Source of the DNA: Escherichia phage vB_EcoM_G17 | Strand: one strand, 5' to 3' | Sequence record: MK327931.1 | Length of the DNA: 64,000 nucleotides | Shown here: positions 194 to 24,961 of the stretch, piece after piece | Layout: each line of letters opens with the position of its first letter | Numbering within the stretch: the first letter of the stretch is position 1 | Position numbers and translations under genes: made by a program | Notes under the pieces: generated by a model | Told to the model about the DNA's origin: nothing | Database searches by the model: none | Seen by the model: only the letters and a program-made list of their open reading frames with translations

Positions 194-212
194 AGCCTCC
201 ATAATGGAGGCT
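194..212. terminator. intergenic hairpin (agcctcc-ataat-ggaggct) with flanking T-run
   Basis: perfect 7-bp inverted repeat between two minus-strand genes. Confidence 0.4.
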
Positions 213-223
213 TTTGTATTTAC

Positions 224-805
224 TTAGAGAGATTCTTCGTATTCAGCAACAATCTCAACCATTTCATTAATGAACTTGATGTGAGAATGTGTCACTGTAC
301 GGAAGTCGTAAACAAGTGACTGTTGGAAAAATACATCTTCATCAAGAGAACCATCAAAGTTCAAATCAATGTTTTCATCGTCATTGCTTGGTGCAACTTT
401 AATATTCAGAAGATTTTCATCAATGAACTTGATGTGAGAATGTGTCACTGTACGGAAGTCGTAAACAAGTGACTGTTGGAAAAATACATCTTCATCAAGA
501 GAACCATCAAAGTTCAAATCAATGTTTTCATCGTCATTGCTTGGTGCAACTTTAATATTCAGAAGATTTTCATCAACTGCAAGTTTTACAACACAACCCA
601 GTGCAATGGCAAGAACATATGCTGGTTTCTTAGCTTTTTCATTACGGAATGGTGCACGTAGAGCACAAAAAGTACTGCTAATCTCATCATTTGGTTCTTT
701 GTATTTAACATTGACCATTAGTTCTTCGATTTTGACGCTCTCAATAACACGACCAGTTTCTGGAGCGAAGAAAGAATGTTCACGGATAGTTTGTTCGATA
801 TTCAT
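224..805 (-). CDS. hypothetical protein containing an exact 51-aa internal tandem duplication
   Basis: 193-aa ORF; residues DENLLNIKVAPSNDDENIDLNFDGSLDEDVFFQQSLVYDFRTVTHSHIKFI occur twice in tandem. Confidence 0.55.
   Translation of the reverse strand: MNIEQTIREHSFFAPETGRVIESVKIEELMVNVKYKEPNDEISSTFCALRAPFRNEKAKKPAYVLAIALGCVVKLAVDENLLNIKVAPSNDDENIDLNFDGSLDEDVFFQQSLVYDFRTVTHSHIKFIDENLLNIKVAPSNDDENIDLNFDGSLDEDVFFQQSLVYDFRTVTHSHIKFINEMVEIVAEYEESL
262..576. repeat. 153-bp direct tandem duplication (about 2 copies, 1 mismatch)
   Basis: sequence 269-421 is identical to 422-574; period 153 nt, in frame with CDS 224-805. Confidence 0.9.
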
Positions 806-808
806 ATA

Positions 809-1003
809 TTATTCCTTATTTAGATTGCTAAAAATACGAAGATTGCGGTTTGCTTTAAACTGTTTCAAATCACCAAATCTATCATCAACGATGAAAGTTG
901 CTGATTTCTTTGACTGACATATTGTACAAATCAACATACCTTGTATTGTATACTCAGTTGAGCAATTTGTACAGTACTTTTTTTCATAAAGTTCAGTACT
1001 CAT
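809..1003 (-). CDS. small Cys-rich (zinc-ribbon-like) protein
   Basis: 64-aa ORF with CxxC...CxxC spacing. Confidence 0.45.
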   Translation of the reverse strand: MSTELYEKKYCTNCSTEYTIQGMLICTICQSKKSATFIVDDRFGDLKQFKANRNLRIFSNLNKE

Positions 1004-1335
1004 AAAACCTTCACATCAGTACGTTTTTCTCTTTGTTCTTTTTTAACCTCATCAGTTCTAGTATCTTCTAATTGTAACACAACTTCTTTTAGAATGTCAA
1101 CATCAATTGTTGCTTCTACATATTGATAGTCGTTTACACCAAAAACATACTTTACTGCAACCCATACACGGTTATACCATTTTAAAAAAGGATTTAAACG
1201 CATACTTATCAGACATTGACCAAGTTTATCATCTCCATATTCCTCTGTCAAGTCAAATTGTGCAATGTGAACGCAATGCTCCATTTTATCGCCACAAGAA
1301 CAACGTAAAATATACTCTTTACTATCTTCACTCAT
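1000..1335 (-). CDS. hypothetical protein
   Basis: 111-aa ORF, tightly packed with neighbours (start/stop overlap). Confidence 0.5.
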   Translation of the reverse strand: MSEDSKEYILRCSCGDKMEHCVHIAQFDLTEEYGDDKLGQCLISMRLNPFLKWYNRVWVAVKYVFGVNDYQYVEATIDVDILKEVVLQLEDTRTDEVKKEQREKRTDVKVL

Positions 1336-1754
1336 ACTGGATAAGCCTTTAAAAATTGTTTAAGAACTCCAAACTTAGATGAATCGTAATCGTATTGATA
1401 GTTAAGCTCTCGCTTATCATTCATACGATACACCATATGAAAATTTGGATAACCAATTCTAACAGGTTTTTTAGGATTAGCAAGTAAAATTGCCCATTCT
1501 TTTACTGGAAATACGTTTTCAGTCAGCATTTTGATATTTGTTTCAAAATACTTCATGGCTTGCTTTCCGTGTTTGTAATCTTCTTCACTAATCTCTTGAC
1601 AATCAATTCTATGTGTTTCGGTATCTAACACCCATTGTTGATCTTCGGTATATAAATCAATTACATCATCAATAGTATAACTATCAGGTAAATCATAAAA
1701 TACCCAATGAGATAAACCAGAACTTACACCAATTCGAATTTTAAAGAACTTCAT
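1332..1754 (-). CDS. hypothetical protein
   Basis: 140-aa ORF, overlapping-stop packing typical of phage operons. Confidence 0.5.
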   Translation of the reverse strand: MKFFKIRIGVSSGLSHWVFYDLPDSYTIDDVIDLYTEDQQWVLDTETHRIDCQEISEEDYKHGKQAMKYFETNIKMLTENVFPVKEWAILLANPKKPVRIGYPNFHMVYRMNDKRELNYQYDYDSSKFGVLKQFLKAYPV

Positions 1755-1987
1755 TCTTTATCACCTTTTACATAATTATAACACACGACACAGTGAATTA
1801 CAAGAAGAATTATTTCCACAATGTTAAGAGACAATACATGACTCTGCGGTGTGAAAAGTGCCAATAACAACATTATAGCAGGTATTGTGAATATTTTCCA
1901 AGTTTTTTTCATTTTATTCCTTTGTATATGCATATGGTAAAAATAAAACCTCTGCATTAGGAATGCATTGTGCCAATCCTTCAACAA
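1751..1987 (-). CDS. small membrane protein
   Basis: 78-aa ORF with two hydrophobic segments. Confidence 0.4.
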   Translation of the reverse strand: MLKDWHNAFLMQRFYFYHMHIQRNKMKKTWKIFTIPAIMLLLALFTPQSHVLSLNIVEIILLVIHCVVCYNYVKGDKE

Positions 1988-2400
1988 TAGATTTGTTTTA
2001 TTACATTGCCAAACTTAGTAATTTTATGTCTAAATACTTTTTTATCAACGACAATCCAGTACATGTCCATTTTAACAGTACTGTTATCAGATGGTGTTAG
2101 TAAAGTATCGATGTCATATGTATCAAAGATTTGTCGTTCATATAATCTCCTAATAAAATATTCTCGATTCTCTCTTATATACCCAGATACACAGTTAGTT
2201 GTGGCTTGGTTAGTGAATGAAATCTCACTATTGGACACGCCATTTGCATCACACAAAGGACATATTCCCATGTACTTGGGGGTCGGGTAGGTGTCCAATT
2301 TGTATTTTTCATTACACACCATGTACTGCTGTGGCAATACATCTAATATTATTTCATATTCTTCATCAAACACCTTGAAGCATACCCAACATTTACCCAT
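1981..2400 (-). CDS. hypothetical Cys-containing protein
   Basis: 139-aa ORF. Confidence 0.5.
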   Translation of the reverse strand: MGKCWVCFKVFDEEYEIILDVLPQQYMVCNEKYKLDTYPTPKYMGICPLCDANGVSNSEISFTNQATTNCVSGYIRENREYFIRRLYERQIFDTYDIDTLLTPSDNSTVKMDMYWIVVDKKVFRHKITKFGNVIKQIYC

Positions 2401-2883
2401 TATAGTTTTCCTTTAACACCGTTCTTATATATTCGAATGTTTTAACAAACCAATCATGTTCGTCGGATACATCTACAACTTTACCACCATATACATAGTA
2501 ATGGTAAAAAGGTAACTTGCTTTTTCTTAATCTTTCGGCTAACTCTGGATTTTGAATTATCTTAGCACAAATAGCATCTTGAATAATAGAAATACAATCA
2601 TCCGTCATTTCAATTCGATCATGCATATATTGTTAGCGGCTGCTTTTGCTGCTGCACCAGATACTTTTCTAAGGTCATCATGTTTTTGCCCAGTTAAAAA
2701 CCAAAAGTAAAATGTTTCAACTGAAGGGAACCAACCATATGGTTCAAGTGTGAAGCTATGTGAAGAAAAGTTAGATAGATCTCTACCTAACTTAGTTCTA
2801 GCTTTACTATAAATGTTAATGTGTCGGTATCCATCATCAGTAGGGTCAATAAAGTCAAATGACTCTTCTGGAAACTCAAACAT
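2393..2883 (-). pseudogene. NADAR (YbiA-like) domain gene split into two overlapping ORFs by a frameshift
   Basis: ORF 2605-2883 matches the YbiA N-terminal motifs (LSNF...PYGWFPSVETFYFWF; compare E. coli YbiA FSNF...WPTSEHYFQAQKF); ORF 2393-2626 carries the AKIIQNPELAERL block (compare AKFEQHAELRALL); frames differ, stop at 2633-2635. Confidence 0.55.
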
Positions 2884-2885
2884 AA

Positions 2886-3122
2886 TTATTCTTCTTCTCC
2901 TGAAGGAGTTCCACGTAGTTTGTCAAAATCAACCCAAATACCATGCTGATTTTTAAATCTACATTTCTCATAGTACCAGCTATAGTCAGTTTCAACACCT
3001 TGTGATATAGATCTAACACTACAATCATACATATTATATAAATGATCCCTGACAATATACGTATTAATCAGAATAACAAACAATACAATAATACCACAGA
3101 CTTTAGGATGATCCATAATCAA
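2886..3122 (-). CDS. hypothetical protein with N-terminal hydrophobic segment
   Basis: 78-aa ORF. Confidence 0.4.
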   Translation of the reverse strand: MIMDHPKVCGIIVLFVILINTYIVRDHLYNMYDCSVRSISQGVETDYSWYYEKCRFKNQHGIWVDFDKLRGTPSGEEE

Positions 3123-3243
3123 ATCTAGAACGGAACTCGTTTCAGTACTGTCAATTTACTACGACCGATGGCAACAGCTTTCAGTACTGCTAATGATACC
3201 AGTAATGAAATAACAAGAACACTCAAATAAATTAGCATAATTA

Positions 3244-3821
3244 GACTCCTACACCAAAACGTAAAAGGATGTTATTAACAAACACAAAATCAAATGGAGA
3301 CTTTGGTTCAGATACCGAGTACTGAAAAGTTTCAGCGGAGAAACTTTCCCTATTGTGCCATGTTGATGAATCGATTAGTAATTGTTTATCACCAATTGAC
3401 GTTGAATGTAATGGAAAGTGTGCTGATGAATTTATGGAATACGCATTTAGTTTTCCTTGTTCATCTAATGTGATACTAAGATAATATTTTTTCTCAATAT
3501 CAGGAATAAGTTCTTTTGTATACGAATAGATTGAATCAACCCATTCATCATGTACATTTTCTGCACCAATCAGGTGTCCGAATGATAAATTACGTTTAAC
3601 TGGCTTTGATCCTGGTCGAGTTAGAATGAATTGTTTTGTTAAGTAAAAATTATTATGTTTACTTCAATATTAACATTTTTAAAATTCACAACTTTATCAT
3701 ATACATTTCGAAAAACTGTTATATCCCAAGTACTAATTTCATCCATAATACTTATCACCAGTTCTTCTAGTTCTTGGATAAATGGCAAATCATCCTGATG
3801 AAATCTAGTCATGGTTTTCAT
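3244..3821 (-). pseudogene. hypothetical gene apparently interrupted by a frameshift near 3640-3665
   Basis: 60-aa ORF 3639-3821 is followed by a 140-codon open frame (3244-3663) with no ATG/GTG/TTG start; an A5 run lies at the junction. Confidence 0.35.
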
Positions 3822-4404
3822 ATACCTTTTTCAAATTCATAATTTCTAGAATGCTGTATTCTTTATCACCAATCAAATCTTCAGTGAATGCAGTGGGGTC
3901 GGCATCGCTATACAACTTACCATTGATGATAACACAACCATTACTAAGATACAATGCACTCATGATCTGTTGTCCTTCTTTCACATTTTGTGCTAGACCT
4001 GTATTTGTTACTACAAATCCATTTGTTGCTAATGATGATGTTAGTTCTGACCATTCAACTGATATTAAGTCGCGATAGTCCTTAGATACTTTTATATTCA
4101 CAATACAAGCAACTCGTTTAATAGGTGGAGTGCTAATCGTGTACATTTGTGGTTGTTGGTAATTAGAGTTGTATGTTTGTGGTGTTTTAACAGCAGTTCC
4201 TGAATTTTGAGTTGATTTGGTAATTACTGGTTCTACACTGGGGACTATTGTTCTTAGTGATATAATACGTCCAGTTTCATCCAATTTAAGGACTAAACGA
4301 TGAGTTTCATCCTCAGAGTAATAGGGAAACAAGCCACCGGAATTCATATTTTGAAGCATTTTAATTAATTCATAAGTATTTTTTAAAAACATAGTACACC
4401 CCAT
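3805..4404 (-). CDS. hypothetical protein
   Basis: 199-aa ORF. Confidence 0.5.
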   Translation of the reverse strand: MGCTMFLKNTYELIKMLQNMNSGGLFPYYSEDETHRLVLKLDETGRIISLRTIVPSVEPVITKSTQNSGTAVKTPQTYNSNYQQPQMYTISTPPIKRVACIVNIKVSKDYRDLISVEWSELTSSLATNGFVVTNTGLAQNVKEGQQIMSALYLSNGCVIINGKLYSDADPTAFTEDLIGDKEYSILEIMNLKKVYENHD

Positions 4405-4411
4405 AGAAAAG

Positions 4412-4430
4412 GGGAGTACAAAGTACTCCC
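4412..4430 (-). terminator. rho-independent terminator hairpin
   Basis: perfect 8-bp stem gggagtac/gtactccc followed on the minus strand by a U-rich tract. Confidence 0.5.
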
Positions 4431-4439
4431 AACATTTAA

Positions 4440-4994
4440 TTATAGTTTAATTGATTCTTGAATACCAGTATCCATTGCTTTCTTGGTACGTGTATCAGAT
4501 ACTACTGTACAAAGGTGTTCAATATTTTCACTTGGAAACGTATTCGAATCAAGAATTTTGGAATTCCAGAAGCCTTTGCGGAACTTAGCATAATCAGTAC
4601 ACTGGTCAATTTTCATTTTCTGAAGATTGTTGAACTTTGTACGTCCTGCTTCAATTGTCACCATCAATTCCTGATAAATTTTAGGATCAAGATTTGGAAC
4701 CTGTTGTTGAATCTGTGACATTACAAACTTCTGGTCAACACCTTCACGCCCTTTAAAGTATGACTCAATCGTTTCTTTCAACGCATTTTTGTACTTATCT
4801 GCTACTTGAACCTTATCTTGAATAGTAAGAGTATAATTGCTAAGTTGACTTTCAGATGCATCATAGTACTTTTTAATGTTTCCTTCAAACTCAACTGCAC
4901 GATCATGTGCACCAACATACATACTAATAGAACCAAACACCATTAGTACAATAACTACCAAAATACCAATTAACGCAAGGAGTTTACCATTCAT
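4440..4994 (-). CDS. membrane-anchored protein with LemA-like N-terminus (weak)
   Basis: N-terminal TM helix (LLALIGILVVIVLMVFGSI) resembling the LemA anchor; the conserved LemA core motif was not recognised. Confidence 0.4.
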   Translation of the reverse strand: MNGKLLALIGILVVIVLMVFGSISMYVGAHDRAVEFEGNIKKYYDASESQLSNYTLTIQDKVQVADKYKNALKETIESYFKGREGVDQKFVMSQIQQQVPNLDPKIYQELMVTIEAGRTKFNNLQKMKIDQCTDYAKFRKGFWNSKILDSNTFPSENIEHLCTVVSDTRTKKAMDTGIQESIKL

Positions 4995-6085
4995 AAATCG
5001 TTATCCCTCATATAAAGGCCAATGAAAATAGACAGAATCAACAAAACAATGGAAGCACCGATAAGAACATCTTTTCTAGGTTCCATTTTTACTGACAAGT
5101 ACTCAAACTCTTTATTAGAGAGTCTCTCAAACTGTGTGTCAATATTATGTACTTCTTTAACTAGTAAGTCAAGAGTTAATTTTTCATTTAATGCATCAAT
5201 ACGCATCTTTGCATGTAACTCTTCATTCTTCATTCCTTGTGCAAATGATGTACTGTAAAATTTGACAACGTTACCATCATTGTCAATACCAAAGAACATA
5301 ATAACATCATTCTTCTTACCACCACGCCACGATGCAAGGGTAGCATCAACAAAATCCACATCTTTGTAATCATAAACTAGTACTTGGATGTTTACCTGCT
5401 TTCGTGCACCCATCGTTTTTAGCTCATTACGAAGGTATTCATCGTAACCATCAACGTTGTAATTTGTAGTGTTAATTACGTGATGTGTTTTGTAATAATC
5501 AACTACACTTGGGTATTCTGGAATAGTACTAAGATACTTTTCATCATACATGTTGTGTAGTTCTTCAGGACTAAACAATGAGTTCTTATCAGCAAATAGA
5601 TAGTTGATATATGAACTCTCTGCGGCGGCATAGTCACCAATCATAACTTGCTGCCAACGTGGTGGTGTCATTGTACCTTGACGGTTCACACGTTCAATCT
5701 CAAACTCACCTACTGTACTTTTCACATACCAATCAACTTCATATGAGTAATCAAAAACCTTATATGATTCACACTCACGATGTGATTTACCTTTACTATC
5801 ATATCGCGTATGGCACTTCTCATGCCATGTATAGTGCTTACATGAACTAGATTGTGTGCAATATTCTTTGTGGCTGTATTTTGAAGTTACTTGACCATTC
5901 AGAATCTCAACATCATAAAGCTGGCTATAGTTGATTGCGTATGAAATACCAAGAACAAGAGCCGCACCAACCAGACAACAAGCAATATGAATCAATAGTT
6001 CTTTAGTACTGATATGCTTATCGTACATGTATTTCATAACGAATACAACGATAAGAGCAGGTATTAACAGAATAATGAAATTCAT
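4991..6085 (-). CDS. Cys-rich integral membrane protein
   Basis: 364-aa ORF with N- and C-terminal TM segments and a Cys/His-rich central domain. Confidence 0.5.
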   Translation of the reverse strand: MNFIILLIPALIVVFVMKYMYDKHISTKELLIHIACCLVGAALVLGISYAINYSQLYDVEILNGQVTSKYSHKEYCTQSSSCKHYTWHEKCHTRYDSKGKSHRECESYKVFDYSYEVDWYVKSTVGEFEIERVNRQGTMTPPRWQQVMIGDYAAAESSYINYLFADKNSLFSPEELHNMYDEKYLSTIPEYPSVVDYYKTHHVINTTNYNVDGYDEYLRNELKTMGARKQVNIQVLVYDYKDVDFVDATLASWRGGKKNDVIMFFGIDNDGNVVKFYSTSFAQGMKNEELHAKMRIDALNEKLTLDLLVKEVHNIDTQFERLSNKEFEYLSVKMEPRKDVLIGASIVLLILSIFIGLYMRDNDL

Positions 6086-6088
6086 GTA

Positions 6089-6778
6089 TTAATCCATTTT
6101 AAGCTTGTTTAGACAGAATGAAATCTGGATTGCTTCACGTGCTGCATCAAACAGTGGGTGATGTAACTCCAACCCATTAATCCCACACGTATTTGCATAT
6201 GTGATAAATTTATCCAACTGTACCGAAACGATTTCATCCATTTCAATACGAGCTTCTTCATTCAATAAACGTTTCAATGTGCGTGCATTTTCAGGTGCAT
6301 CATACTTCCACAACTCACCAGCGTTCATTAGTTTTAAATGGTTTGCTTGTAAAATACTACAATCGAAGTTACATCCGTTGCCCCAGACTGAATGAGGAAC
6401 TTCTTCACCATAATCATTGTAACGTAATTCTTTCCAGAAATCAACAATACTACTGTATGCAAAAAATCGTCGTGATTGACCATTCGGTCCATACAGTTCA
6501 GGTGCTTTGAGTTTCATAGTACTGGCAACTTCAGAATATGCATTAGAGTATTCTTTCTGACATGTATTCATCCAAAAATCCATTGCACCTGCGTCTGATT
6601 TTAAACCAGCAGCAACTTGATCCTGGTATGGTAATTTAATATATAAGAACTGACGAATGTCATTTTCAGGTTTACTTGGAACTACTACTGCTGCGTAATT
6701 TGGGATAATAATATCATAACCGGAAAGTTCAGGTGTTCCAAGAGCTTCAATATCAACACTAATATGACGACGTTTCAT
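6089..6778 (-). CDS. dexA: exonuclease A-like DEDDh 3'-5' exonuclease
   Basis: motifs DIEALG, NFDCSIL and HHPLFDAARE match the DnaQ-type exo motifs I-III and resemble T4 DexA. Confidence 0.65.
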   Translation of the reverse strand: MKRRHISVDIEALGTPELSGYDIIIPNYAAVVVPSKPENDIRQFLYIKLPYQDQVAAGLKSDAGAMDFWMNTCQKEYSNAYSEVASTMKLKAPELYGPNGQSRRFFAYSSIVDFWKELRYNDYGEEVPHSVWGNGCNFDCSILQANHLKLMNAGELWKYDAPENARTLKRLLNEEARIEMDEIVSVQLDKFITYANTCGINGLELHHPLFDAAREAIQISFCLNKLKMD

Positions 6779-6802
6779 AAGTTAGTTCCTTATCTGTACA
6801 TT

Positions 6803-6845
6803 AAAAAGAGTGCGTTTTCAATAAGATTATATTAAAAACGCACTC
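6803..6845 (-). terminator. rho-independent terminator
   Basis: 11-bp inverted repeat gagtgcgtttt/aaaacgcactc followed on the minus strand by a T-run. Confidence 0.55.
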
Positions 6846-6857
6846 ATATGTCAACTA

Positions 6858-7994
6858 TTACTTGTTAGCTTTTTCGGCAATTTCACGAAGAGTGTCTTCC
6901 AGTTCATAGGAAAGTTGTGCAATTTCCTGTTTAGCACGTTCACGTTCCAATTTGCCTTTTTTCTCTTCTTCAATAACTGCTTCAATACTGTCAATCATCG
7001 TTTTATGTACATTACGCAAGGTTTTAATATCCACAATACCACGGTTGTTTGCCTTTGCTGCGTCCAACATATTTGCTGCAACCATTTTAGAGTTAGTTTC
7101 CAAAAGACGGTTTGTCTCATTATCAATTAGATTGCCTAGTTCATTATCCTTACGTTGACGCTCGGAAATTAACTGTTCAGCCAATTGAGACTTCCATGCT
7201 GGAATAACAACAGATTTTAAATCTTCAAACTTAGAAACAGTGTTCAAGTTTACTTTTTTCATACTCATCAAACGTGGACCACTTAGCTCGCACATCATGA
7301 TAAGACGACGAATCTTATCTTCTTGTTTAGAAAGTGCTTCACAAATCATCTTTTGCTCTTGAATAGCAAAAGAGTCTACATTTTTGTCTGCTTGCATTTC
7401 TAATAATAATGCATCTTGTGTTTTAGTTACTTCTTCTAAACCAACTAATGTATCACGTAATTCAAACAAATATTCTTTGTTTTCATTATATGCTTTATCA
7501 AGCCATTCACATTCTCCGTGCTGGCGATTAATACCAGTTTGAAGAGTTTTCATAATTTCGTCAATTTGCTCTTTACTGTTTTTGTACTGATCACCTACTT
7601 TCTGTTGAGCATTAACAAAGAATTTCTTAATACGACCAACAATTGATTTATCTTCTTGAAGACTGTCAATATCAACTGCACGAGTCAACGTAAGAATTGT
7701 GGTGATTGATTTACCAAACTCGGTATTGTCATCCGTTACATTAACTTTAGACATAATTTCATCAGCCAAACGCCCAACAGCAGCACCAGCAGTTGTACCA
7801 ACAGTATTGATGTTTTGAACTGTTAGAGACATAGTATTTCCCTTAACATCTTTCAGTACTGGTAGTGATTTTGTAGTTTGGTTAAAAATATCACTTGCAT
7901 CAATTGTATGACCTTTAGACGCAGTTTTAGTAGTGCGTTTTGCTGATTTAGCTGCGGTGGATGCTTTTTTAGGATTGATTTCTTTCTCGGACAT
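6858..7994 (-). CDS. coiled-coil protein, possibly TelA-like (toxic anion resistance family)
   Basis: 378-aa ORF, largely helical; C-terminal NNRGIVDIKTL block recalled as resembling a conserved TelA/YceH motif (from memory, unverified). Confidence 0.4.
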   Translation of the reverse strand: MSEKEINPKKASTAAKSAKRTTKTASKGHTIDASDIFNQTTKSLPVLKDVKGNTMSLTVQNINTVGTTAGAAVGRLADEIMSKVNVTDDNTEFGKSITTILTLTRAVDIDSLQEDKSIVGRIKKFFVNAQQKVGDQYKNSKEQIDEIMKTLQTGINRQHGECEWLDKAYNENKEYLFELRDTLVGLEEVTKTQDALLLEMQADKNVDSFAIQEQKMICEALSKQEDKIRRLIMMCELSGPRLMSMKKVNLNTVSKFEDLKSVVIPAWKSQLAEQLISERQRKDNELGNLIDNETNRLLETNSKMVAANMLDAAKANNRGIVDIKTLRNVHKTMIDSIEAVIEEEKKGKLERERAKQEIAQLSYELEDTLREIAEKANK

Positions 7995-8042
7995 TTAGTA
8001 TTCCTCGTTTAATTTAATATGATGTGCTGCTCTGTGATAAAC

Positions 8043-8075
8043 ATTATACGGGCAGCACGTATGATAGTCAAGTAT
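8043..8075 (-). promoter_or_regulatory. sigma70-type early promoter (-10 TATAAT)
   Basis: minus-strand TATAAT at 8043-8048 about 45 nt upstream of the start at 7994. Confidence 0.4.
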
Positions 8076-9207
8076 TTTTTAACTCTTTGTTACCATATGC
8101 CAGATTACGAATAATTTCTACAGTACTCTCATCCACAGCTTTACCTGTCTGTGATTGTAAACGATTGATAATCAAAGGAATAGTAATAGTTTGAAGATCT
8201 ACCATACGATTCATATCAACTTGATATTGCTTACTTGTTGCAATAATGCTCGTTTCAGTCATGGAGGTGGTGATTCCCATTTTCATAATACGTTCTAATG
8301 TTAATTCATATTCAAACGCATCATCCACACAACGTAGTGCGTATTCACAACCCAACTTACCATATTCAAGTTCATTTTTGATTTCATTAACTTCGTTTCT
8401 AAGTTCTGAAAACATCGTACTAAGACCACTAAACTTATTAGTGTCATACTTAACTGCTTCATTTAGTGCTTTCATCACTTTTGGCAAATCTGATGGTTGC
8501 ACTTTGATATCAGTTTTACCAAACAATTTCTGTGTAAAGGTCGGCTTCAATGGGAACAACGTCTCCAACGCAACAGTAAGGTTATTCATAAGCATTCTAA
8601 TATAATCACTATGCTGTTGTAATGCTGAGTTAAGATCCAATTGACGTTCTGAAATTTGTTGAATCTTAGTTCCAATTTCTTGTGCACAAACTGGTAAGTT
8701 TACAAACCAGTCTAGTACTTTTACTGAATTCTTTTCAATAGTACTAGGGAATTCAACCCATCTTTCAATGTCATCAATTCTGCTATCGTCTGGGTTGATA
8801 GGTTTTTTCTTAAGAACAATAGGTGCAGGTACATCTGGTGATGTTTGTACCAAGTCTAAACGTGGTTTGGCACGACCTTCTTTCCATTCACGATATTCAC
8901 GCTCTAATGGCGGTACTGGCATGTTAGGATCAATTCTAATATTACTAAAATGAATTTTATCCTTCATTAAATCAAGAACTTTCAGACGTTTATTATCAAA
9001 ATAGATTTCATCTAATGACAGAGTTTTTACATCAAATAACGGATTACCCAGCGAGTCATAGGTGCGACGTACAATTACATTGTAAATGTATTTTTTGTTT
9101 GATGAACGGTCATATTGTTTCAATAAAGAGTTCAGTACATAATTATAGTTAAATTCTTGAATCTCAACTTCTTTGCCATTTTCAATGAAAAAATATTTAC
9201 CTTTCAT
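8068..9207 (-). CDS. hypothetical protein
   Basis: 379-aa ORF. Confidence 0.55.
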   Translation of the reverse strand: MKGKYFFIENGKEVEIQEFNYNYVLNSLLKQYDRSSNKKYIYNVIVRRTYDSLGNPLFDVKTLSLDEIYFDNKRLKVLDLMKDKIHFSNIRIDPNMPVPPLEREYREWKEGRAKPRLDLVQTSPDVPAPIVLKKKPINPDDSRIDDIERWVEFPSTIEKNSVKVLDWFVNLPVCAQEIGTKIQQISERQLDLNSALQQHSDYIRMLMNNLTVALETLFPLKPTFTQKLFGKTDIKVQPSDLPKVMKALNEAVKYDTNKFSGLSTMFSELRNEVNEIKNELEYGKLGCEYALRCVDDAFEYELTLERIMKMGITTSMTETSIIATSKQYQVDMNRMVDLQTITIPLIINRLQSQTGKAVDESTVEIIRNLAYGNKELKNT

Positions 9208-9284
9208 TATAAAACCTCATAATCAATTAAAATTTACGCTATGGTGATATTGTACATACTTCGACTACACATGTCAACACCTGA

Positions 9285-9316
9285 AAAGAAAAAAGGACGC
9301 ACCTTAGTGCATCCTT
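9285..9316 (-). terminator. rho-independent terminator
   Basis: about 10-bp stem (aaggacgcac / gtgcatcctt, one G-U) followed on the minus strand by UUCUUUUC. Confidence 0.45.
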
Positions 9317-10122
9317 TTGTTACTTTTATCCTTGTACCATACAAATGTCTTGACAGGTGGATATTTTTCATTCTTTGGTGGTTCAGGCATGTCGTATACA
9401 GTTGCATTTCTAAACTTAAGAATGTATGTGTCCATTAAACGGATTATACAATAGTTTAAACATTTTTGTGCTCTTTCTTTCCAAAAATGTTTATATGGTT
9501 CTGGACAACCAAGATAATCAAGTTTATACATACTCATAGCAACTTGCATAAATCTTTGGGCCGAGAATTTTCGCTTATCAATCTTACTTGCTCTGTGTTG
9601 GTCACATGTCCAACTTGATACACCAGGCAAGTGACAAAACAAATCAAAACTAACCATACTATCAAAGTATTTGTTATGACCATGTAACTCACCATAAAAT
9701 ACAGCTTCTGACACAGTATCATATAATGAGAAATTTGAATGTATATGTTCATTATCAAAAATACTTTTTAAATCTTTATAAGTTTCTGGAACAGGTGGCT
9801 CAGGTAATACTTCACCGAATACTTCAACACACCATATCTTCCATAAACCTTTTGTAAATTTATTTTCTAATTCTCTATCACTATCAATATAAAAAGTTTT
9901 TTCATTTATGAAAACTTTTCTAGCCATGTATGCTTTAAAAATTGCATCTGGATCAATGTCTTCACGATTTACATCATCCCAGCCTTTACCAATTCTTGAA
10001 ATTTCAAATCTACGCATATACATACGACATGCTAAATCTTTAGTAAGGCTGCGACGATACTTTTCATCCTGATGTAATTTGGTTGTTTCGTGAAGAGATT
10101 TAAGCATATTTAAAATTCTCAT
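9304..10122 (-). CDS. hypothetical protein
   Basis: 272-aa ORF. Confidence 0.55.
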   Translation of the reverse strand: MRILNMLKSLHETTKLHQDEKYRRSLTKDLACRMYMRRFEISRIGKGWDDVNREDIDPDAIFKAYMARKVFINEKTFYIDSDRELENKFTKGLWKIWCVEVFGEVLPEPPVPETYKDLKSIFDNEHIHSNFSLYDTVSEAVFYGELHGHNKYFDSMVSFDLFCHLPGVSSWTCDQHRASKIDKRKFSAQRFMQVAMSMYKLDYLGCPEPYKHFWKERAQKCLNYCIIRLMDTYILKFRNATVYDMPEPPKNEKYPPVKTFVWYKDKSNKRMH

Positions 10123-10799
10123 CGCAACACCAAATATTTCCCGTTTCTTCCAATTACATATTGATCACCACTTCGTAGTACTGTATAGCTTTCCCCTAGT
10201 ATGGAACTAAGACGCGAAGTGTCTAATTGTGTATCATTCTTTAATAACTTTTTCACATATGTTTCTGAAACAAAACCGCTTCCAGTACTGTAATGTAATT
10301 TACCATATGCTGTTTTTAATGTCAACATGTTTCCTTCTTTGATTACTGAAACACCAGCATAATCAAGGAACTCACTAATTGAACTAGGAATACCCAAATC
10401 AATTCTCTGCTGTATTTCTTCAAAATCAACATCGATTGGGTCATTAACACCATATAGTTGTATTTTCCAACCTGGGTCTGGACAAATATTTTCAATAGTT
10501 TTAATTAAACGTAAAAGTTTTTCAGGGAATTCAGCATTTCGTTCCATTTCAACATAAACTTGATATCGACCATCTAAATTTGGTGTTTCTGCTGCTTCTG
10601 TATCAGCTACATCAATAGGTGATTTTTCAATAAAAGAAGATAAATCATATGCTGCATCAAAATTGTTAAGTACCTGAAACATAATAACAATATTACTATC
10701 TTCAATTTTAGGAGTATATTCATCAACACTAATGATAGGATGAATCAAATCTTTGAGAACTTGCGGACGTAAGCCTTGTTCATTTAATTTCTTTTTCAT
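10119..10799 (-). CDS. hypothetical protein
   Basis: 226-aa ORF, stop/start overlap with neighbours. Confidence 0.55.
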   Translation of the reverse strand: MKKKLNEQGLRPQVLKDLIHPIISVDEYTPKIEDSNIVIMFQVLNNFDAAYDLSSFIEKSPIDVADTEAAETPNLDGRYQVYVEMERNAEFPEKLLRLIKTIENICPDPGWKIQLYGVNDPIDVDFEEIQQRIDLGIPSSISEFLDYAGVSVIKEGNMLTLKTAYGKLHYSTGSGFVSETYVKKLLKNDTQLDTSRLSSILGESYTVLRSGDQYVIGRNGKYLVLR

Positions 10800-14112: not shown

Positions 14113-14145
14113 ATTATATCACATGTTTTTCTACCATTTCAAAAA
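14113..14145 (-). promoter_or_regulatory. early promoter with extended -10 (TGTGATATAAT)
   Basis: minus-strand TGnTATAAT at 14113-14123, upstream of the start at 14067. Confidence 0.45.
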
Positions 14146-14649
14146 TTCGTTAACATCAAGTTCATACTTCAATGAATCTACCATATGTAGTCCAATCAAA
14201 AACAAACAGTATGATGCAACAGAGCTTCCACGACCTAGACCCCAAAAGATCTCATTTTCTTCCATATAATCAACAAGCCATATCATACATCTTAGTAGCT
14301 TTGTCATATTATAATATTCATATAAATCAAGTTCATACTCAACACGTTTTCGTGCTTCATCGGATGTGCATTTTTGTAAGAAAAAGTCACGCAGATTTAT
14401 ATTGTCGTATACTGGATCATATCGCCACAGTTCATGATTTTTATCATGCTCAATTGTATAATCCAGCATACGTTGTTCTAAGCCAAATTTTTTACAGTTA
14501 TCATTGAATTTCAACCTTTCAGGTTCATCAATTTCCTGCAATTGTAAGTACTGGATATCTGCACCGCAATTGATTGCATAAACAACTGCGTTAAGATTAC
14601 ATTTCACATCACCATTGGGACTTATAAATCTGTTTCCTTGTACTTTCAT
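14131..14649 (-). CDS. small protein homologous to the region of DNA polymerase III alpha (DnaE) just before the catalytic aspartates
   Basis: C-terminal FWGLGRGSSVASYCLFLIGLHMVDSLKYELDVNEFL aligns with E. coli DnaE [35 protein letters not shown]; preceding YELDLYEYYNMTKLL matches ELQVINQMGFPGYFL; the ORF stops before the PDFDVDF catalytic motif. Confidence 0.5.
   Translation of the reverse strand: MKVQGNRFISPNGDVKCNLNAVVYAINCGADIQYLQLQEIDEPERLKFNDNCKKFGLEQRMLDYTIEHDKNHELWRYDPVYDNINLRDFFLQKCTSDEARKRVEYELDLYEYYNMTKLLRCMIWLVDYMEENEIFWGLGRGSSVASYCLFLIGLHMVDSLKYELDVNEFLKW

Positions 14650-23898: not shown

Positions 23899-24961
<1,063 letters not shown>

Follow-up and report, generated by a model that had tools for sequence, protein, structure and literature searches.

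The locus and its LemA-like and TPM-like proteins

We analyzed a locus of five consecutive genes in a 64,000-nucleotide stretch of DNA from Escherichia phage vB_EcoM_G17 (sequence record MK327931.1; the whole stretch is hereafter called the window). It includes two adjacent genes for membrane proteins which, judged by profile comparison and structure prediction, represent a strongly diverged version of the LemA-TPM gene pair of bacteria. The five genes are termed p1 to p5 and encode proteins of 184, 364, 229, 378 and 379 amino acids (aa), respectively (Table 1). The four open reading frames (ORFs) listed in an original prediction, which had been made from the sequence alone, are present where it had placed them, all on the minus strand, which carries nearly all ORFs of the window. 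The spacing between p3 and p2 is 3 nucleotides (nt), while p2 and p1 overlap by 4 nt. The remaining window encodes ribonucleotide reductase, gyrase/topoisomerase, helicase, a RecA-like protein, a B-family polymerase, RNase H and dihydrofolate reductase. Bases 4000-9300 of the window were compared with related phage genomes and show 100% identity to Escherichia phage Sharanji and 99% identity to PBECO4, slurp01 and 121Q, all of which are Asteriusvirus jumbo phages of ~350 kb. The counterparts in 121Q are gp65 (hypothetical), gp66 ("TelA-like protein"), gp67 ("metallopeptidase"), gp68 (hypothetical) and gp69 ("LEMA protein; bromodomain-like fold"), and both the TelA and the LemA names are already present in GenBank through the 121Q record. 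NCBIfam and PADLOC searches with p1 to p5 returned no matches.

The protein p1 consists of a single N-terminal transmembrane (TM) segment, located within residues 1-31, and a LemA-like helical domain (residues ~27-157). A Pfam search with p1 itself gave no LemA match at E<=1, and no precomputed Pfam domain is found among the 120 p1 relatives listed of 204. The Pfam LemA profile (PF04011; gathering threshold 26.2 bits) is the top sub-threshold match in four members of the p1 family, one with 24.6 bits and E 2.5e-5 and the others with E 0.01, 0.024 and 0.096, and all four matches cover the same part of the profile. A set of bacterial LemA proteins was obtained by probing a plasmid collection with a consensus-like LemA query, which yielded 96 records annotated "LemA family protein"; seven diverse LemA loci were taken from these matches, and their seven LemA proteins served as the comparison profile. 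Pfam confirmed LemA for three of the seven, the Parabacteroides and Acinetobacter proteins included, and likewise for the E. coli locus. When 57 p1-family sequences were aligned with the seven bacterial LemA proteins by hhalign, the 130 aligned columns, which cover template positions 23-181 of 200, gave a probability (Prob) of 93.1% and E 3.1e-7. The controls with reversed alignments reached a Prob of 0.6-0.8%, and those with unrelated families (TPM, p2, TelA and p5) a Prob of at most 1.3%. Additionally, a hidden Markov model built from the seven bacterial LemA sequences scored up to 34 bits on p1-family members. Together, these profile comparisons identify the p1 family as a remote homologue of LemA, below the level of Pfam membership. 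The predicted model of p1 is all-helical with a pLDDT (predicted local distance difference test) value of 73, and a Foldseek search with this model retrieved only generic helical bundles, with the LemA structure 2etd at rank 24 (E 2.4). Searches of PDB sequences with p1 and the p1 profile gave nothing useful. Weak p1-like matches were also observed in 10 records of Prevotella megaphages, for example Lak-C1 (540 kb; 27% identity, E 5e-4).

The N-terminus preceding the TM segment is positively charged in 44 of the 57 p1 homologues. The residues C132 and C162 are both present in 14 of these homologues and both absent from the other 43, never one without its partner, and such covariation is the pattern expected for a periplasmic disulfide. 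The helical domain of p1 is thus predicted to face the periplasm. A lipobox-like ...LAGC motif is seen at the N-terminus of Burkholderia LemA, as read from the alignment with no signal-peptide predictor used.

The protein p2 contains three predicted TM segments (residues 1-22, 25-54 and about 336-361), the first two of which make up a hairpin (residues 1-54). Two domains lie between this hairpin and the C-terminal TM segment, namely a beta domain with conserved cysteines (residues ~57-200) and a domain that adopts the TPM fold in the predicted structure (residues ~205-335). Pfam has no match for p2 or for its ICP1 and LIMEstone1 homologues, and the family of p2, phrog_2087, bears the function label unknown. 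The sequence of p2 is not significantly similar to TPM, and it is the predicted structure that supports the TPM assignment. As compared by eye, the G-Y-G-L-E stretch of bacterial TPM domains has no clear counterpart in p2, the conserved motif of which is GGKKND. There are six cysteines in p2, two of them in the second TM segment and four in the ectodomain, the latter conserved in 89% (C76), 98% (C82), 92% (C91) and 66% (C105) of the family. The loop between the first two TM segments is Lys-rich and the C-terminal tail is basic in most homologues, a charge distribution that would place both the beta domain and the TPM-fold domain in the periplasm.

The families of p1 and p2 have hundreds of homologues each, so their features do not reflect chance. 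The original prediction had named a LemA-like anchor and a Cys-rich membrane protein here. The first name holds as remote homology detected between profiles, together with the N-terminal TM segment, but not as a Pfam match for p1 itself; the second is borne out by three TM segments and four conserved ectodomain cysteines, but with six cysteines in total the term "Cys-rich" was overstated.

Table 1 Coordinates of genes, domains and predicted transcription signals at the locus (positions in the window).
Feature	Position	Strand	Basis or remark
p1, LemA-like, N-terminal membrane anchor	4440-4994	minus	ORF, TM segment, hhalign
p1 N-terminal TM segment	4902-4982	minus	
p1 LemA-like helical domain	4524-4916	minus	
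p2, three-TM protein with predicted TPM-fold domain	4991-6085	minus	ORF, TM prediction, predicted structure
p2 hairpin of the first two TM segments	5924-6085	minus	
p2 conserved-Cys beta domain	5486-5917	minus	
p2 predicted TPM-fold domain	5081-5473	minus	
p2 C-terminal TM segment	5003-5074	minus	
p3, DEDDh 3'-5' exo(ribo)nuclease, 229 aa	6089-6778	minus	PF16473 E 4.1e-9; phrog_255 exonuclease
p4, TelA family, no TM segment, predicted single-gene unit	6858-7994	minus	PF05816 E 2.2e-37; phrog_5890
p4 match to TelA profile	6885-7817	minus	
p5, very small family, outside the finding	8068-9207	minus	no Pfam match in members
Predicted sigma-70-type promoter of p3-p2-p1, TTGACA-17-TATAAT	6826-6854	minus	12/12 matches
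Predicted sigma-70-type promoter of p4, TTGACT-17-TATAAT	8043-8071	minus	11/12 matches
Predicted sigma-70-type promoter of p5, TTGACA-17-TACAAT	9249-9277	minus	consensus match of at least 11/12
Terminator-like hairpin after p4, 16 pairs and T run	6808-6845	minus	overlaps p3 promoter
Terminator-like hairpin closing p3-p2-p1, GGGAGTAC-TTT-GTACTCCC and T-rich tail	4412-4430	minus	consensus
Terminator-like hairpin preceding p5 promoter	9291-9318	minus	consensus

The p2-p1 pair in phages and the LemA-TPM pair in bacteria

The genes p2 and p1 travel together. In 14 of 14 contexts checked at the sequence level, p2 is directly followed by p1; these comprise the window, GAP32, K64-1, ICP1, LIMEstone1 (Ackermannviridae), pVp-1 (Demerecviridae), PhiW-14, phiM7, Aci02-2, XacN1, RAY, a Variovorax element and the two metagenomic contigs that hold the most divergent p2 relatives. 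Outside these 14, the gene listing of another contig has a 186-aa gene in the p1 position. A tblastn search of 50,697 phage records found p2 in 485 and p1 in 482, with matching counts per genus (Salmonella 166 and 166, Escherichia 62 and 62, Erwinia 29 and 29), and all named host genera of the carriers are Gram-negative. The carriers, large virulent phages that make up ~1% of the phage records, include Ackermannviridae, Rak2-like and other jumbo phages, ICP1, T5-like vibriophages, and Acinetobacter and Aeromonas phages. The order and the length of p2-p1 are conserved across unrelated phage families. The flanking genes vary by lineage, which indicates that the pair is a self-contained module. 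In the 816-kb Variovorax replicon, the pair (4772-6591 of the fetched locus) lies among small hypothetical genes, helix-turn-helix regulators and a T5orf172 gene, and may belong to a prophage-like or mobile element.

In the loci that we fetched from Parabacteroides, Legionella, Burkholderia and Enterococcus, the LemA gene precedes a TPM gene, or two of them in the case of Burkholderia; in Sulfitobacter it precedes a DUF2207 gene. The bacterial TPM partners carry a TM segment after the TPM domain. Among 5426 complete E. coli genomes, 1455 (27%) carry DNA spanning a LemA+TPM+TPM locus; this accessory operon is chromosomal in every case and occupies 2450-5122 of the chromosome region that was fetched. 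Since bacterial LemA genes adjoin TPM genes, we read the phage pair as a LemA-TPM module that has strongly diverged, with p1 linked to LemA by profile comparison and p2 to TPM by its predicted fold. Other neighbors of bacterial LemA genes were considered as relatives of p2 and rejected, as the 342-aa gene of Acinetobacter, DUF3137 and DUF2207 show no similarity to it. Our literature searches found no description of a phage LemA or TPM protein, and the TPM assignment of p2 as well as the p2-p1 pairing appear to be undescribed.

Transcription units, TelA and the neighboring genes

All three matches of at least 11/12 to the sigma-70 consensus in bases 3500-10300 fall on the coding strand, in the gaps just upstream of p5, p4 and p3 (Table 1); for random sequences of the same composition as the bases scanned, the mean would be 0.45 matches. 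Combined with the terminator-like hairpins, these predicted signals divide the region into three units, [p5], [p4] and [p3-p2-p1], the last of which opens with the exonuclease gene p3. Equivalent promoters are likewise predicted upstream of the TelA gene in GAP32 (11/12) and K64-1 (12/12), and comparable ones upstream of p2 in GAP32, K64-1 and XacN1. The three units are all probably early, and the surrounding genes of replication and nucleotide metabolism were counted as support for early expression. The hairpin after p4 is nested in the perfect promoter of p3, with the -10 box in the hairpin loop, so that termination and re-initiation would share 47 bp (6808-6854).

The protein p4 matches the TelA profile with 129.3 bits (cutoff 30), residues 60-370 covering positions 14-331 of 332, and by this match it is a full-length member of the TelA family. 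The gene is already annotated as TelA in 121Q, PBECO4 and slurp01, and the slurp01 genome note mentions TelA. No TM segment is predicted for p4 or p5, and the PDB sequence search found no solved relative of TelA or of p3. The TelA family occurs in 257 phage records, among them Phapecoctavirus and Justusliebigvirus as well as Lactobacillus, Listeria and Caulobacter phages, a distribution unlike that of p2-p1. Iyer et al. (2021) recorded TelA as a standalone gene in the Rak2-like jumbo phages and suggested that it acts against superinfecting phages, with no mention of LemA or TPM. In some phages (Phapecoctavirus, Caulobacter phages), TelA lies near TerC/TerD-type genes or an SprT-like gene. In Escherichia phage ESCO5 (Phapecoctavirus; locus 209-4508), for instance, a gene for an SprT-like metalloprotease overlaps TelA upstream and a gene for the membrane protein TerC is located ~2 kb upstream, a setting unlike that of TelA in the window.

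The exonuclease p3 matches the Rv2179c-like family with 36.8 bits (cutoff 27), and the DEDDh motifs D-x-E, D and H-x4-D are visible as VDIEALG, NFD and HHPLFD. Its homologues were found only in Rak2-like and T5-like phages. We considered the exonuclease as a member of the p2-p1 module and rejected it, as it is absent beside the pair in ICP1, Aci02-2, RAY and XacN1. The family of p5 comprises 19 clusters in 1.84 billion representatives, and none of its 16 members examined with Pfam has a match. By hhalign, the C-terminal half of p5 aligns with TelA at a Prob of 45-49% and E ~2e-4 over 177-201 columns, against E 0.04-0.09 for the reversed controls, while BLASTP found no similarity between p4 and p5. 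The p5 gene, which is kept upstream of TelA in GAP32 and K64-1, may thus encode a diverged TelA-like paralogue.

The block of p5, TelA, exonuclease, p2 and p1 is syntenic in Asteriusvirus, in Alcyoneusvirus K64-1 and in Mimasvirus GAP32. TelA adjoins p2-p1 only in Rak2-like jumbo phages, and since these phages have the flanking genes for the clamp loader and structural proteins in common as well, its place beside the pair is best read as inherited synteny. TelA is found without the pair in Phapecoctavirus, Lactobacillus and Caulobacter phages, and no TelA gene lies within the 2.5-4 kb flanks of the pair in ICP1, Ackermannviridae, T5-like vibriophages, and Acinetobacter and Erwinia phages. These results bear on the original prediction, which had proposed a cluster of co-occurring LemA and TelA stress proteins interrupted by a DexA-like exonuclease. 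Its assignment of p4, a 378-aa coiled coil with a possible TelA motif at the C-terminus, was correct as to the family, but the match spans nearly the whole profile. For p3, Pfam and the motifs confirm a DEDDh exonuclease, but the likeness to DexA holds only at the level of the fold, and the relatives are in T5-like phages. The proposed cluster does not fit the distribution, as p2-p1 is co-conserved in every lineage checked but TelA and the exonuclease accompany it only in Rak2-like jumbo phages, nor does it fit the three separate units delimited by predicted promoters and terminators. The actual partner of the LemA-like gene appears to be p2, with its predicted TPM fold, rather than TelA. Overall, the original prediction stands in part: its TelA is solid and its LemA is a remote homologue, but one LemA/TelA stress cluster is not upheld.

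Elsewhere in the window, a tandem duplication of 153 bp (2.1 copies, 99% identity) occupies 262-576 inside the minus-strand ORF 224-805, so that ~51 residues are repeated in frame in a 193-aa hypothetical protein. The minus-strand gene at 24458-24961 encodes a 167-aa homologue of translation initiation factor IF-3, in which both domains are present, the N-terminal (E 6e-16) and the C-terminal (E 8e-14). For the 172-aa ORF at 14131-14649 (minus strand), the match covers no more than a fragment of an NTPase domain, that of bacterial DNA polymerase III alpha (E 2e-9); its counterpart in 121Q is labelled "DNA polymerase III alpha subunit".

Proposed role and comparison with known systems

The reading that we favor, with moderate confidence, is that the region holds separately transcribed early units, in which a diverged LemA-TPM pair and TelA serve the inner membrane during infection. 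According to this model, p1 and p2 would be made early from promoters of the host RNA polymerase, with p2 and p1 translationally coupled behind the exonuclease in one unit that runs from the promoter at 6854-6826 to the terminator at 4430-4412. Both proteins would insert into the inner membrane and act jointly on its periplasmic face, while TelA, and possibly p5, would act on the cytoplasmic face. The joint purpose would be to keep the inner membrane of the infected cell intact and energised, or to remodel it, through the long cycle of a jumbo phage. The adjacency of TelA and the pair would then reflect shared timing and inherited synteny rather than an obligate complex. We infer the membrane role from the bacterial families, in an analogy that draws on TPM and PspA, on TelA and XpaC, and on MamQ. 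TPM domains have been proposed as chaperone-like partners of PspA and membrane-stress systems; TelA together with xpaC has been implicated in daptomycin resistance and belongs to the sigma-W regulon; and MamQ, a LemA homologue, is required for the formation of the magnetosome membrane.

Several points weigh against this model. The hhalign comparison of p2 with bacterial TPM domains aligned the expected region, at a Prob of 2.3% and E 0.02, which is not significant. The topology of p1 and p2 is deduced from charge bias and cysteine covariation, and the promoters and terminators are predicted, being consensus matches only. The phage order, TPM-like gene then LemA-like gene, is the reverse of that in the bacterial operons examined. 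Furthermore, the phage role is drawn by analogy, and the data would fit several roles, of which membrane maintenance is one.

Among the rival explanations, superinfection exclusion comes first. In this case TelA, p2-p1 or all three would be membrane proteins, made early, that prevent competing phages from bringing in their DNA or from completing their periplasmic steps, much like Imm and Sp of T4. It would suit the early sigma-70-type promoters of the units, the predicted inner-membrane and periplasmic topology of the pair, the accessory nature of the E. coli LemA-TPM operon, present in about a quarter of the genomes, and the role in jumbo phages that Iyer et al. (2021) proposed for TelA. Genes of this kind, however, are usually lineage-specific and fast-evolving and are rarely conserved across phage families, and we rated exclusion lower for the pair because p2-p1 is so conserved. 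Moreover, PADLOC gave nothing meaningful for the bacterial LemA and TPM proteins or for their phage homologues. We therefore regard exclusion as a possible but rather unlikely explanation.

Another proposal concerns p2-p1 as a conserved phage machine on the periplasmic face. Such a machine might, for instance, close or strengthen the membrane once the genome has been injected, or assemble a membrane platform required by large virulent phages, and TelA and the diverged TelA-like protein would complement it on the cytoplasmic face in Rak2-like phages. This remains speculative, and we give it little weight; if true, the phage pair would be the first tractable handle on the bacterial LemA-TPM module.

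An alternative that we consider improbable is that the LemA-like protein, the membrane protein and TelA work as a single, functionally integrated cluster for envelope stress, the exonuclease being an interloper. The five-gene synteny and the membrane or envelope association of the bacterial LemA, TPM and TelA families would speak for such a cluster. The predicted signals, however, give TelA and the pair separate promoters with a terminator between them; the jumbo phages share the synteny of the whole region, so that conservation of the block reflects common descent; and outside Rak2-like phages each is found apart from the other, for the pair in the flanks examined.

Slightly less probable still is that p1 is a structural protein of the virion that is carried in the particle and enters the host membrane upon infection, p2 being its partner in assembly. 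The label "virion structural protein" is attached to the p1 family, phrog_1383, and to many RefSeq records, including the homologues in GAP32, PhiW-14, phiM7, RAY, Aci02-2 and LIMEstone1. The same label is borne by a p1 homologue at 5136-5705 of one fetched locus. However, the LIMEstone1 paper lists 39 virion proteins determined by mass spectrometry, and the p1 homologue ORF195 is not among them; the 121Q record calls other genes structural, but not gp69; and the unit of p1 has a perfect early-type promoter and lies among replication genes. Given the absence of ORF195 from that list and the early-type promoter, we treat the label as propagated annotation.

The i-spanins and the T4 holin have the architecture of p1, an N-terminal TM segment with a periplasmic helical domain. 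Least probable of all is a lysis pair, in which p1 would serve as a holin, antiholin or i-spanin-like type II membrane protein under the regulation of p2. It would match this architecture of p1 and its probable disulfide, but p1 is related to LemA by profile comparison and not to lysis proteins, and its expression seems to be early, not late. No lipoprotein partner was identified next to p1, with no search aimed at lipoboxes, and the linkage to an endolysin is not conserved, an endolysin being nearby only in PhiW-14. The idea of a spanin or embedded gene was rejected, as no ORF of at least 50 aa is embedded in p1 on the coding strand.

The favored reading, a diverged LemA-TPM pair and TelA acting at the inner membrane from separate early units, would matter beyond this phage. 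LemA and TPM are common in bacteria and usually lie side by side, as a pair without established function, and largely the same applies to TelA. Two annotations, "hypothetical" and "virion structural", become one testable two-gene unit; a propagated label is corrected; and the TelA neighborhood is reinterpreted as inherited synteny instead of a functional operon. Phage genetics in ICP1 and Kuttervirus would offer a way to learn how the bacterial LemA-TPM pair functions. The new points are the predicted TPM fold of p2 and the widespread phage pair of LemA-like and TPM-like genes. As the family labels are already in GenBank and the mechanism is only inferred, the gain is modest.

The closest known system is the bacterial pair of LemA (PF04011) and TPM (PF04536, DUF477), as exemplified by LemA+TPM+TPM of E. 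coli, WP_005857030/WP_005857032 of Parabacteroides and Bcep1808_7283-7281 of Burkholderia vietnamiensis. Both systems consist of two adjacent, envelope-linked genes, one for an N-terminally anchored helical protein of ~185-200 aa and the other for a TPM domain followed by a TM segment, and both domains are extracytoplasmic, as predicted in the phage. The phage proteins differ in that both fall below Pfam thresholds and in their reversed gene order. Specifically, p2 has an additional TM hairpin and a conserved-Cys beta domain of ~140 residues before its predicted TPM fold, and the Gly-rich tail at the C-terminus of bacterial TPM proteins is missing from it, while p1 lacks a stretch of ~25 residues in the middle of LemA, according to the hhalign alignment.

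As a soluble, full-length member of PF05816, p4 resembles TelA/KlaB of plasmid RK2, the TelA (YaaN) that accompanies XpaC in Firmicutes, and other phage TelA proteins. Unlike in the telAB, xpaC-telA and ter systems, no XpaC, TelB/KlaC or TerC/TerD was seen here, and the TelA neighbors are p5 and the exonuclease; of the 38 Pfam families matched by the remaining 70 ORFs in the window, 25 were listed, and no Ter family is among these. A possible TelA-like paralogue (p5) upstream further distinguishes this phage from other TelA settings.

Two bacterial proteins provide partial parallels. MamQ shares with p1 a single N-terminal anchor and a LemA-type helical domain on the non-cytoplasmic side, as predicted for p1. 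Unlike p1, MamQ can be recognised as a LemA homologue, and it works together with other Mam proteins, with no TPM partner reported in the source. YdjH of the B. subtilis ydjFGHL operon is, as p2 is predicted to be, a TPM-domain membrane protein; it is coupled to a membrane-stress system and has a proposed chaperone-like role. The partner of YdjH is PspA/ESCRT-III-like and not LemA, and the surroundings of the phage pair showed no homologue of PspA.

Among phages, Imm and Sp of T4 are early, small inner-membrane proteins for superinfection exclusion in a large virulent phage. The pair p2-p1 has no sequence or fold relation to them, and in contrast to the narrowly distributed Imm and Sp, it is broadly conserved.

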